A DNA stretch of 64,000 nucleotides from Escherichia coli (GTDB lineage Bacteria > Pseudomonadota > Gammaproteobacteria > Enterobacterales > Enterobacteriaceae). Under the pieces are notes generated by a model. That model was not told the origin of the DNA. It did not search any database and was given only the letters and a program-made list of their open reading frames with translations. The DNA lies in assembly GCF_003334815.1 (NCBI RefSeq), contig NZ_QOWO01000002.1. One strand, 5' to 3'. Positions 11,651-37,406 of this stretch are shown here, piece after piece (the first letter of the stretch is position 1; each line of letters starts with the position of its first letter). A program made the position numbers and the translations under genes.

Positions 11651-11663
11651 CGGCACATTGTCG
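11651..11663. repeat. IS4 target-site duplication, left copy (CGGCACATTGTCG)
   Basis: 13-bp sequence immediately outside the IS4 left end, identical to 13090-13102. Confidence 0.88.
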
Positions 11664-13089
11664 TAATGCCAGTCAGTTAAGCAACTGACTGGCTCTTTTT
11701 CGGGGCTGTGGGGTATTTCCAGGGCCTCTCCTTTACCACTCTCGGGAAGGCCCTTTCCCTTCTTGTCGGTAATTTCACAAGTTGTCCCATACTTGCAAGA
11801 TCGCGCATCAGCTCCGGTATACGTCCCGGTGAAGCGCCCTGCAATGTCATCAGCATTCTCATCACCATTCCGCATGATTCTGAGAAACTCAGTTGATTCG
11901 GCCAGTAACCTTTCAGATGTTCCGCCATTTTAATTATCTGATATCTCACCAGATTATAAGCCAGTAAGACACCCCACAGCTCTTGCTCCACAAGCTCCGG
12001 TTTTTTACTTCTCAGCGTCAGCCTGCTCAGTTGCATCGTCTGTTTTATCTCCCTGTATCCCAGTTCGATTTCCCAGCGATGACTGTACAGATCCGCCATT
12101 TCTCCTCCGGGGAAGCGCATGGCGTCCGTCATCGACGTCAGCAGATGGCAGACTTTTCCTTTGCGCGTCACGGTCAGCAGGCGGGCAGTCACTTCATTTC
12201 CCAGTCCCGGCCACTTTTTTCGTGCCTGCGGGCTGGTTTTCAGCTTCACCAGATGATCGCCTTTACCCAGTTTTCTGATCTCTTCATATTGCGCTCCCTT
12301 TCTGAGAGGTATCATCCAGTGGCGGTGTTCTCCCGCCAGGCTCCAGGCATTTAACAGTCCCAGTGAGTAATAACCTTTATCCATTAACGTCAGAGTGTTA
12401 TCGCCGGTTTGTTCTATAAGTTGCTCAGCAAGCTCATTTTCGCTGTTCTTCATCGTGCCGAAGGCTGCAGCCGTCAGCAGATGGCTGGTCAGTTCCATCT
12501 GGCAGACCATTTTGACCTGCGGGTAGAGCGCCGGGTTCCCGGCATGTGTCTGGCGGGGGAAGGCTGCATCGTTCTCTGGTGTATCCGGTGTGCGCCAGAA
12601 CACACCATCGATGGCCAGCAGGGTCAGGCCGCACCAGTGCGGATGCGGCGTGGCGTTATGCCAGAGCTGCGCTGTTTTCGTGAACACGCGGCGGACAGCC
12701 TCACTTCCCAGGCGCTGGCGGGCCTGAATAACGGCACTGGGGGCAACGAAGGGGCGATTGCCCGGCAGCATGATGTCCAGGCGATTCACAATCTGGTGAA
12801 GAGGTTCTTTACGCTCAAGCGCCATGCCAACAATACACCAGACCATCATTTCGAGGGGAAGACGGCGCTTGCGTAGCGTTACAGTACCTGATTCGGCAAG
12901 GCAACGAGAGATGAGTTCGGGGTCGAGGTAATCCCCCAGAGAAGTCAGTGGGTTACGCAGAGAATCGTAACGGGATACCAGATCAAGAGCCTGTCCAATG
13001 TGCATAAAAAAATCCGGAAACAAGTGAGCGTTTCCGGATTCTTACACAGCCACTGGATCGGTCAACTGATCCTTAACTGATCGGCATTA
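11664..13089 (-). mobile_element. IS4 insertion sequence, complete 1426-bp copy
   Basis: Imperfect terminal inverted repeats (TAATGCCAGTCAGTTAAG at 11664; revcomp of right end TAATGCCGATCAGTTAAG ending 13089); single transposase ORF; flanked by identical 13-bp direct repeats. Confidence 0.92.
11677..13005 (-). CDS. insG: IS4 transposase (DDE family)
   Basis: ORF-track 448 aa trimmed to ATG at 13005 giving 442 aa ([40 protein letters not shown]…); stop 14 bp inside the IS end; uninterrupted reading frame. Confidence 0.93.
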
Positions 13090-13102
13090 CGGCACATTGT
13101 CG
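13090..13102. repeat. IS4 target-site duplication, right copy (CGGCACATTGTCG)
   Basis: 13-bp sequence immediately outside the IS4 right end, identical to 11651-11663. Confidence 0.88.
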
Positions 13103-14148: not shown

Positions 14149-14832
14149 ATGACGGCAATTGCCCCGGTTATTACCATTGATGGCCCAAGCGGTGCAGGGA
14201 AAGGCACCTTGTGTAAGGCTATGGCGGAAGCGTTGCAATGGCATCTGCTGGACTCGGGTGCAATTTATCGCGTACTGGCATTGGCGGCATTACATCACCA
14301 TGTTGATGTTGCGTCGGAAGATGCGCTGGTACCGCTGGCATCCCATCTGGATGTACGTTTTGTGTCGACCAATGGCAATCTGGAAGTGATCCTCGAAGGG
14401 GAAGATGTCAGCGGCGAAATTCGTACTCAGGAAGTGGCGAATGCAGCTTCACAAGTCGCGGCATTCCCACGCGTTCGTGAAGCATTATTGCGTCGCCAAC
14501 GCGCGTTTCGCGAATTACCAGGTCTGATTGCCGATGGCCGCGACATGGGAACGGTGGTATTCCCTGATGCACCAGTGAAAATTTTCCTTGACGCCTCCTC
14601 GGAAGAACGTGCGCATCGCCGCATGCTACAGTTGCAGGAGAAGGGCTTTAGTGTTAACTTTGAGCGCCTTTTGGCCGAGATCAAAGAACGCGACGACCGC
14701 GATCGTAACCGAGCGGTAGCGCCACTGGTTCCGGCAGCCGATGCTTTAGTGTTGGATTCCACCACCTTAAGCATTGAGCAAGTGATTGAAAAAGCGCTAC
14801 AATACGCGCGCCAGAAATTGGCTCTCGCATAA
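14149..14832 (+). CDS. cmk: cytidylate kinase
   Basis: 227-aa ORF with P-loop [15 protein letters not shown] Shine-Dalgarno; directly upstream of rpsA. Confidence 0.96.
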
Positions 14833-14942
14833 GCGACCGAATTTGCAGTACCCCCGTTGCAATGGAATGACAGCGGGTATGTTAAACAACCCCATCCGGC
14901 ATGGAGCCAGGTGGACGTTAAATATAAACCTGAAGATTAAAC
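14833..14942 (+). promoter_or_regulatory. rpsA leader / translation initiation region lacking a canonical Shine-Dalgarno
   Basis: No AGGAGG-like motif within 15 nt upstream of the rpsA ATG (…CCTGAAGATTAAAC-ATG). Confidence 0.55.
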
Positions 14943-16616
14943 ATGACTGAATCTTTTGCTCAACTCTTTGAAGAGTCCTTAAAAGAAATCGAAACCCGCC
15001 CGGGTTCTATCGTTCGTGGCGTTGTTGTTGCTATCGACAAAGACGTAGTACTGGTTGACGCTGGTCTGAAATCTGAGTCCGCCATCCCGGCTGAGCAGTT
15101 CAAAAACGCCCAGGGCGAGCTGGAAATCCAGGTAGGTGACGAAGTTGACGTTGCTCTGGACGCAGTAGAAGACGGCTTCGGTGAAACTCTGCTGTCCCGT
15201 GAGAAAGCTAAACGTCACGAAGCCTGGATCACGCTGGAAAAAGCTTACGAAGATGCTGAAACTGTTACCGGTGTTATCAACGGCAAAGTTAAGGGCGGCT
15301 TCACTGTTGAGCTGAACGGTATTCGTGCGTTCCTGCCAGGTTCTCTGGTAGACGTTCGTCCGGTGCGTGACACTCTGCACCTGGAAGGCAAAGAGCTTGA
15401 ATTTAAAGTAATCAAGCTGGATCAGAAGCGCAACAACGTTGTTGTTTCTCGTCGTGCCGTTATCGAATCCGAAAACAGCGCAGAGCGCGATCAGCTGCTG
15501 GAAAACCTGCAGGAAGGCATGGAAGTTAAAGGTATCGTTAAGAACCTCACTGACTACGGTGCATTCGTTGATCTGGGCGGCGTTGACGGCCTGCTGCACA
15601 TCACTGACATGGCCTGGAAACGCGTTAAGCATCCGAGCGAAATCGTCAACGTGGGCGACGAAATCACTGTTAAAGTGCTGAAGTTCGACCGCGAACGTAC
15701 CCGTGTATCCCTGGGCCTGAAACAGCTGGGCGAAGATCCGTGGGTAGCTATCGCTAAACGTTATCCGGAAGGTACCAAACTGACTGGTCGCGTGACCAAC
15801 CTGACCGACTACGGCTGCTTCGTTGAAATCGAAGAAGGCGTTGAAGGCCTGGTACACGTTTCCGAAATGGATTGGACCAACAAAAACATCCACCCGTCCA
15901 AAGTTGTTAACGTTGGCGATGTAGTGGAAGTTATGGTTCTGGATATCGACGAAGAACGTCGTCGTATCTCCCTGGGTCTGAAACAGTGCAAAGCTAACCC
16001 GTGGCAGCAGTTCGCGGAAACCCACAACAAGGGCGACCGTGTTGAAGGTAAAATCAAGTCTATCACTGACTTCGGTATCTTCATCGGCCTGGACGGCGGC
16101 ATCGACGGCCTGGTTCACCTGTCTGACATCTCCTGGAACGTTGCAGGCGAAGAAGCAGTTCGTGAATACAAAAAAGGCGACGAAATCGCTGCAGTTGTTC
16201 TGCAGGTTGACGCAGAACGTGAACGTATCTCCCTGGGCGTTAAACAGCTCGCAGAAGATCCGTTCAACAACTGGGTTGCTCTGAACAAGAAAGGCGCTAT
16301 CGTAACCGGTAAAGTAACTGCAGTTGACGCTAAAGGCGCAACCGTAGAACTGGCTGACGGCGTTGAAGGTTACCTGCGTGCTTCTGAAGCATCCCGTGAC
16401 CGCGTTGAAGACGCTACCCTGGTTCTGAGCGTTGGCGACGAAGTTGAAGCTAAATTCACCGGCGTTGATCGTAAAAACCGCGCAATCAGCCTGTCTGTTC
16501 GTGCGAAAGACGAAGCTGACGAGAAAGATGCAATCGCAACTGTTAACAAACAGGAAGATGCAAACTTCTCCAACAACGCAATGGCTGAAGCTTTCAAAGC
16601 AGCTAAAGGCGAGTAA
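14943..16616 (+). CDS. rpsA: 30S ribosomal protein S1
   Basis: 557-aa ORF with repeated S1 domains ([26 protein letters not shown]…). Confidence 0.97.
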
Positions 16617-16626
16617 TTCTCTGACT

Positions 16627-16648
16627 CTTCGGGATTTTTATTCCGAAG
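16627..16648 (+). terminator. hairpin downstream of rpsA (putative terminator)
   Basis: CTTCGG-N10-CCGAAG with T-rich loop and short T-run. Confidence 0.45.
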
Positions 16649-17060: not shown

Positions 17061-17085
17061 GTTTTTTACTCAAACTTGAACGAGA

Positions 17086-17110
17086 GAAAAGCACCTGTCG
17101 GGTGCTTTTT
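17086..17110 (+). terminator. rho-independent terminator after ihfB
   Basis: AGCACC-TGTCG-GGTGCT followed by TTTTTT. Confidence 0.85.
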
Positions 17111-17267
17111 TCATTTCTCTAATCTGGAACTGGAAGCTGCCTCGCAGAGTTTTGAACAGTTTTCACCCTTTCGTTAAATTCTTCTGAATATGCCTCGGGG
17201 AACGCAAAATTCCCACCAGACAACCGCTCAACAAAGTTGCACACTTTCCATAAACAGGGAGGGGTGC

Positions 17268-37342: not shown

Positions 37343-37374
37343 AAAATCGTGCAAATTCAAAATATTGCAGGGGA

Positions 37375-37406
37375 CGCGTAGGCCTGATAAGCGTAGCGCA
37401 TCAGGC
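37375..37406 (-). repeat. REP element in inverted orientation (forms a BIME with 37309-37342)
   Basis: Reverse complement GCCTGATGCGCTACGCTTATCAGGCCTAC… matches the REP consensus family. Confidence 0.8.

Follow-up and report, generated by a model that had tools for sequence, protein, structure and literature searches.

The rpsA gene of Escherichia coli raises the question of how a start codon is found by the ribosome when no canonical Shine-Dalgarno (SD) sequence precedes it. The leader of this gene, which encodes ribosomal protein S1, has been dissected experimentally since about 2000, and its translation initiation region (TIR) is reportedly the subject of studies by Boni et al. 2001 (EMBO J 20:4222), Tchufistova et al. 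2003 and Skorski et al. 2006 (J Bacteriol 188:6277). An SD-less rpsA leader under autogenous control by S1 is already known and is not a new finding here. We analyzed the leader as it occurs in a 64,000-nt stretch of DNA (the window) that belongs to the E. coli chromosome and that matches several complete genomes, including that of NCTC86, at 100% identity over its first 25 kb. As a separate observation, ycaQ is intact in the window, although it is annotated as a pseudogene in NCTC86.

According to the RefSeq annotation, cmk (14149-14832) is followed by rpsA (14943-16616) and then by ihfB, with a cmk-rpsA spacer of 110 nt (14833-14942) that ends at the rpsA ATG (14943-14945). Three observations make the start codon secure. 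There is a TGA in frame 4 codons upstream of it (14931-14933), the product matches the NCBIfam S1 equivalog NF004951 from end to end (residues 1 to 557 against profile positions 1 to 556), and the equivalent ATG, followed by a GAA codon in nearly all cases, begins the protein match in nearly all of 80 homologous gammaproteobacterial loci (in 3 loci the match begins one codon later). The region from 14600 to 15100 is at least 99% identical across all 5426 complete E. coli genomes, so that the SD-less rpsA start is not a strain oddity. Moreover, positions 14810 to 14961 are identical to the MG1655 (K-12) sequence given in a published table, and the published rpsA experiments therefore apply to this allele. 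The coordinates of the features discussed below are collected in Table 1.

Table 1. Features of the cmk-rpsA spacer and the rpsA start region (positions in the window)
Feature	Position	Strand	Remarks
Promoter-like TTGAGC-18-TACAAT, candidate proximal rpsA promoter	14774-14803	+	consensus scan only; inside the 3′ end of cmk
cmk stop codon TAA	14830-14832	+	110-nt spacer to rpsA begins after it
Hairpin I	14853-14877	+	stem 14853-14859 with 14871-14877; 11-nt loop with GGA at 14864-14866
Linker ss1 (UAUGUUA), AU-rich single strand	14878-14884	+	presumed S1 contact; A+U 0.81
Hairpin II	14885-14919	+	AAC/GUU, 14885-14887 with 14917-14919; CCAUC/GGUGG, 14892-14896 with 14910-14914
Hairpin II, upper part	14898-14900 with 14906-14908	+	GGC/GCC; loop AUGGA 14901-14905, GGA at 14903-14905
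Linker ss2 (AAAUAUAAACCU), AU-rich	14920-14931	+	length varies from 3 to 15 nt; A+U 0.79
Hairpin III	14932-14956	+	GAAGAUU 14932-14938 with AAUCUUU 14950-14956 (codons 3 to 5); 11-nt loop holds the AUG
Vestigial SD (GAAG, −11 to −8)	14932-14935	+	ΔG −1.0; in the 5′ arm of hairpin III
rpsA CDS, 30S ribosomal protein S1, 557 aa	14943-16616	+	annotation and profile match

For the candidate proximal promoter, the consensus scan predicts a transcription start near 14810, and a published CsrA CLIP peak sequence begins at 14810; we infer that the two are linked. The same scan returned no promoter-like site abutting the rpsA ATG. A leaderless rpsA mRNA is ruled out by the conserved structured leader of at least 91 nt, described below, together with the CLIP peak, which covers −133 to +19.

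The original prediction held that no purine-rich SD is visible upstream of the rpsA ATG, and the sequence that it quoted, CCTGAAGATTAAAC-ATG, is present exactly where it was said to be. On re-inspection, we found no canonical SD in the 5 to 12 nt before the start codon. The only SD-like element is the GAAG at −11 to −8, which is separated from the ATG by a 7-nt spacer and whose longest match to the anti-SD is 3 contiguous Watson-Crick pairs (AAG). The predicted duplex of rpsA positions −21 to −1 with the 3′ end of 16S rRNA (ACCUCCUUA) amounts to −1.0 kcal/mol, against a median of −5.65 kcal/mol for 46 annotated genes of the window. This value makes rpsA the third weakest of the 46, with only mepK and ycbU pairing more weakly. 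These statistics cover the annotated window genes with verifiable starts; 5 genes beyond 57.7 kb were excluded because the NCTC86 reference annotation is out of register with the window there. The absence of a canonical SD thus stands, and the wording of the prediction was slightly too strong, since a purine run, GAAGA, does occur at the canonical distance from the ATG. The GAAG within it has been called a vestigial or weak SD in the literature (PMC4408793). A single A-to-G change at −10 (14933) would convert it to GGAG, with a predicted ΔG of −6.4 kcal/mol.

We then predicted the secondary structure of 14850 to 14960, and the minimum free energy (MFE) and centroid structures agreed. In both, the leader consists of three hairpins joined by AU-rich linkers, an element (14853-14956) that lies directly upstream of the rpsA start and overlaps it, with S1 as the downstream open reading frame. 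The foot of hairpin I falls at −90/−91, coinciding with the published upstream limit of the rpsA TIR at −91 (PMC3121790). Hairpin III, with a predicted stability of −2.2 to −2.6 kcal/mol, is weak. In the predicted ensemble the GAAG is largely paired (probability of being unpaired, 0.01 to 0.17) and the AUG largely free (0.86 to 1.0). The UAUGUU of ss1 can also pair with AAUAUA at 14921-14926 in the E. coli MFE structure, giving an extended lower stem of hairpin II that we left out of the covariance model described below. The second linker, ss2, is described in the literature as variable but AU-rich (PMC3616713). Compared with shuffled sequences, the MFE of the whole leader was not unusually stable (z = −1.3); with so weak a thermodynamic signal, support for the fold comes instead from covariation.

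To follow the leader across the Gammaproteobacteria, we used 80 rpsA loci from one scan of representative genomes. A first covariance model, made from the E. coli sequence and the three-hairpin structure, was used to collect and align matches; a second, which includes 18 nt of coding sequence, was rebuilt from 31 of these matches and run again on all loci. The rebuilt model matched the rpsA start in all 56 loci from the Enterobacterales, Vibrionales, Pasteurellales, Orbales, Alteromonadales and Aeromonadales. It gave no match at E ≤ 1 in the 24 loci of Pseudomonadales/Oceanospirillales type, which come from Pseudomonas, Halopseudomonas, Stutzerimonas, Marinobacter, Endozoicomonas and the Kangiellaceae. 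Anti-SD pairing energies ranged from +0.9 to −3.3 in the 56 leader-bearing loci and from −3.8 to −4.3 in the 24 loci of pseudomonad type. In most of the latter, AGGA is present at about −11 to −8. In none of the sampled orders did the structured leader occur together with a usable SD-like motif.

The paired columns of the alignments also vary together. Because the alignments were fitted to the model structure, their paired fractions are somewhat inflated, yet 90.2% of cells were paired in the 41-sequence alignment, against 32 to 48% when the 3′ partners were slid by 1 to 3 columns, and 86.3% were paired in the 57-sequence alignment (5 to 6 orders), against 31 to 45% when slid in the same way. 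Changes on both sides were seen in 20 of the 25 pairs, and the observed values were reached in none of 500 shuffles. We argue from the slid controls and from the number of distinct pair types that the covariation signal is real. Compensatory changes occurred in all 7 pairs of hairpin I (92 to 96% of cells paired) and in all three subhelices of hairpin II (78 to 95%). Hairpin III (79 to 83%) is mostly invariant and showed few such changes, because its 3′ arm is coding; a hairpin with the AUG in its loop was nevertheless predicted for 25 of 56 leaders, as opposed to 10.6 ± 2.1 after the flanks had been shuffled. Over 57 leaders, the A+U fraction was 0.43 in the stems, against the much higher values of the two linkers (Table 1), and GGA was present in loop 1 of 56 leaders and in loop 2 of 40. 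From a plain MAFFT alignment of 41 leaders, RNAalifold returned no pairs and hence no consensus structure, because variable loop lengths put the 3′ arms out of register; covariance-model alignments were used for this reason. In the MAFFT alignment itself, compensatory variation is obvious by eye. The original prediction had also called the leader structured and had proposed folding it and comparing it with the published rpsA initiation region. Folding gave three hairpins, with the GAAG paired and the AUG unpaired, two of the hairpins (I and II) being backed by compensatory changes, and the comparison showed agreement in the missing SD, the three hairpins, the −91 boundary and the sequence itself, which is that of K-12.

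Taken together, these results make it very probable that the element is the native E. coli rpsA TIR, an SD-less, structured leader through which S1 recruits the ribosome and S1 also represses. Our own observations cover the missing SD and the fold, which is conserved, shows covariation and occurs together with loss of the SD across taxa; for S1 dependence, autogenous repression and the loss of control with GGAG, we rely on the literature. In the proposed mechanism, the leader of ~91 nt would fold so that hairpins I and II each show a conserved GGA loop, and in the weak hairpin III the degenerate GAAG would lie in the stem and the AUG in the loop. The 30S subunit would be recruited mainly via its own bound S1, which, according to published work, contacts AU-rich single strands and the fold, and pairing with the anti-SD would play a minor part in initiation. 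When S1 is in excess, free S1 would bind the same leader and outcompete the 30S subunit, leading to translational repression; it is the weakness of the SD that would allow the repressor to win this competition. We found no sequence evidence against this explanation. It agrees with reports that the rpsA TIR has no canonical SD, depends on S1 and is repressed through competition between free and 30S-bound S1 (PMC10931766, PMC4408793, PMC3616713, PMC3121790, PMC3177188); the original prediction had likewise named a structured leader without an SD and autogenous repression by S1. It is likewise in line with reports that translation of rpsA is SD independent (PMC4408793, PMC3121790) and that the contacts of S1 are with the AU-rich single strands and the hairpin III loop, with the loop GGs mattering for regulation (PMC3616713). 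In addition, a canonical SD in place of the weak one "completely abolishes autogenous repression" of rpsA (PMC10931766; also PMC4408793, PMC3177188), the GAAG-to-GGAG change being one that abolishes autocontrol (PMC4408793).

Other explanations of the same observations have to be weighed. That accessibility of the AUG suffices, the start codon lying in an unstructured, AU-rich pocket with neither an SD nor a specific fold being needed (the "local unfoldedness" model), is suggested by the unpaired AUG of the predicted ensemble and by the finding of Scharff et al. 2011 that mutations in the rpsA 5′ untranslated region (UTR) that structure the start codon reduce expression to as little as 11.9% of the wild-type level (PMC3121790). 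On its own, we judge this unlikely, since it does not account for hairpins I and II, 25 to 90 nt upstream, being under strong purifying and compensatory selection, for the invariant loop GGA or for the reported specific repression by S1 (PMC10931766), and start codon accessibility is best seen as a component of the S1-based explanation. The GGAs conserved in both loops could also be taken to form a discontinuous SD, with the folded leader pairing with the CCUCC anti-SD, although GGA is missing from loop 2 in 17 of 57 leaders. This proposal was reportedly tested by Skorski et al. 2006 with specialised ribosomes and found to be unsupported: changing GGA to CCU reportedly cut translation 3- to 7-fold, and ribosomes with a complementary anti-SD reportedly gave no rescue. 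After the failure of that idea, to our knowledge, no function of the two loop GGAs has found acceptance. Together with the description of rpsA as SD independent (PMC4408793, PMC3121790), this makes pairing of the loops with the anti-SD a very improbable account. An annotation artefact, in which translation starts elsewhere or in which rpsA is reached by coupling to or reinitiation from cmk, is next to impossible. We found no points in favour of it, and against it stand the in-frame stop codon, the S1 profile match running full length from residue 1, the equivalent ATG opening the protein match in nearly all 80 loci, a 110-nt gap from the cmk stop to the ATG that is too long for coupling, and the conserved structured leader that fills this gap.

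A different role for the loop GGAs would be as binding sites for CsrA, a dimer of which would link the two hairpins and adjust the synthesis of S1 or the stability of its mRNA, on top of autocontrol by S1. CsrA recognizes the consensus RUACARGGAUGU with the GGA in a hairpin loop, and its dimer bridges sites 10 to 63 nt apart (PMC7652899), a range that includes the 33 to 39 nt between the two loop GGAs. The loop sequences seen in most taxa are CAAGGAUGA for loop 1 and AGGAU for loop 2. Outside E. coli, loop 1 matches the consensus at an average of 4.4 of 9 positions, as opposed to 2.6 for background GGAs, but loop 2 is at background (2.9 versus 2.6), and in the E. coli loops no more than 1 to 2 of the 9 flanking positions fit the SELEX consensus. 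The CLIP-seq peak reported by Potts et al. 2017 (Supplementary Data 1) over rpsA −133 to +19 (logFC, 1.65; padj, 4e-14) has its maximum 96 nt from the peak start, at about position 14906 of the window, which is at or next to the loop of hairpin II, and rpsA mRNA also copurified with CsrA in Edwards et al. 2011. On the other hand, rpsA did not change significantly in the csrA mutant of Potts et al. (log2 values of −0.29 for footprints, −0.25 for RNA and −0.04 for translation efficiency), and the early part of the rpsA coding sequence is covered by four more CLIP peaks, as is to be expected for a very abundant mRNA. A search of the available literature returned no paper that links CsrA to the rpsA leader; the peak of Potts et al. 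on the leader has been published but not discussed. On balance, a CsrA function for the GGA loops appears quite improbable. If it were real, the Csr carbon and stringent response network would be tied, through CsrA, to the synthesis of S1 and hence to how well the cell can translate weak-SD mRNAs.

Comparison with known leaders places the element within the S1-based explanation. It is the very rpsA autoregulatory leader described for the gammaproteobacteria, and it agrees with that leader in its three hairpins and AU-rich linkers, in the GG(A) of both upstream hairpin loops, in having GAAG as a degenerate SD and in the boundary at −91. The leaders of rplY (L25) and fis, two other highly expressed E. 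coli mRNAs with weak SD-like elements, likewise lack a canonical SD yet are translated at a high level, with AU-rich enhancers and a specific 5′ UTR structure, and in rplY, as in rpsA, autogenous control is lost when the weak SD is changed to GGAGG (PMC4408793). They differ from rpsA in that the repressor of rplY is L25 and fis has none, and their folds are different and show no sequence relationship to that of rpsA. With CsrA-bound leaders (glgC and ymdA) and CsrB-type GGA hairpins, rpsA has in common a GGA in each of two loops at a spacing suited to a dimer and an in vivo cross-link; unlike in those leaders, the change of rpsA in the csrA mutant is not significant, the E. coli loops match the consensus poorly and neither GGA overlaps an SD. 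Fu et al. 2013 presented an alignment of rpsA leaders with examples in every gammaproteobacterial order (PMC3616713). This range is wider than that of our rebuilt model, whose blank result in the 24 Pseudomonadales/Oceanospirillales-type loci has to be read with the fact that coding sequence is part of it and that its training sequences came from the other orders alone.

The element also illustrates how such signals escape annotation. A start criterion led by the SD (at least 4 to 5 nt complementary to the 16S 3′ end, 5 to 10 nt upstream) passes over rpsA, and a search against Rfam 15 gave no match up to E = 10 within 14833-14960 and no family covering this leader at gathering score over the whole window, a kind of gap of which Fu et al. 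2013 had warned (PMC3616713). With a low SD score and no Rfam model, automated pipelines miss both the start signal of rpsA and its regulatory RNA. That strong genes can lack SD signals in automated calling, the caution attached to the original prediction, is reasonable but trivial; the value for annotation lies in the case itself, in which the most efficient start site of the window ranks near the bottom for SD strength. The comparative result, with the leader present in every sampled order without an SD and absent where a short SD-like motif (mostly AGGA) has been kept, illustrates how pairing with the SD can be traded for a protein-mediated recruitment of the ribosome that is open to repression.

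A published CsrA CLIP-seq peak, peak_95 of Potts et al. (2017), spans the entire rpsA leader (window positions 14810-14961) and is highest near 14906, at the GGA of the hairpin II loop; the peak is given only in the supplementary tables of that study, and rpsA is absent from its main text. In most other taxa, the loop 1 sequence is CAAGGAUGA, which resembles a CsrA site. We also noted a predicted sigma-70-like promoter (TTGAGC-18-TACAAT, 14774-14803) within the final codons of cmk. The start predicted for this promoter, at ~14810 (-133 relative to the rpsA ATG), matches the 5' limit of the CLIP peak, and a start at this position would make the proximal rpsA leader longer than the 91-nt translation initiation region.

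Among the homologous rpsA loci, some Alteromonadales lineages (loci L018, L022, L026, L030, L035, L041, L042, L051 and L053, around locus positions 1180-1220) have AAU UUU (Asn-Phe) at codons 4 and 5 instead of UCU UUU (Ser-Phe), and in the same lineages A-rich strings, for example, GAAAAAG or AAAAGU, take the place of the upstream GAAGAUU. Because these strings can pair with AAAAUUUU, hairpin III seems to have been retained in these lineages through co-variation of leader and coding sequence. Many loci of the Pseudomonas type (roughly Pseudomonas/Stutzerimonas; L059-L080, L082 and L083, locus positions about 1160-1200) carry a short GC-rich hairpin, e.g., GGGCGGAUCCUCGCCC, in place of the three-hairpin leader, followed by ~8 to 10 nt of A-rich sequence, then ACAGGAAU, and then the ATG. 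This arrangement may represent a different leader architecture.

Rfam 15 contains no family for the experimentally characterized S1 autoregulatory leader, and the interval 14850-14960 gave no match there even at an E value of ≤10. Only two Rfam matches in the window reached the gathering score, the PyrD leader and the ES036/CssrF sRNA. Several weak, sub-threshold sRNA matches were stacked on the ihfB terminator, and these are probably generic matches to a terminator.

Noncoding elements and the IS4 insertion located in the window
Feature	Position	Context	Basis
IS4 copy	11664-13089 (1,426 bp)	insertion between aroA and ycaL	
IS4 transposase	11677-13023	minus strand	
Terminator-like hairpin + T-run	16627-16648	directly 3' of rpsA	
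Terminator-like hairpin + T-run	17084-17112	directly 3' of ihfB	
ES036/CssrF sRNA	37343-37385	between gloC and aspC	Rfam, 53 bits
PyrD leader	57648-57721	upstream of pyrD	Rfam, 97.9 bits

The IS4 copy has imperfect terminal inverted repeats and is flanked on both sides by a 13-bp direct repeat, CGGCACATTGTCG (11651-11663 and 13090-13102); the aroA-ycaL site of E. coli O157:H7 PV15-279 lacks the element. In the window, ycaQ (22337-23569) is an intact open reading frame of 410 codons, whereas the near-identical NCTC86 record annotates this gene as a pseudogene with an internal stop.
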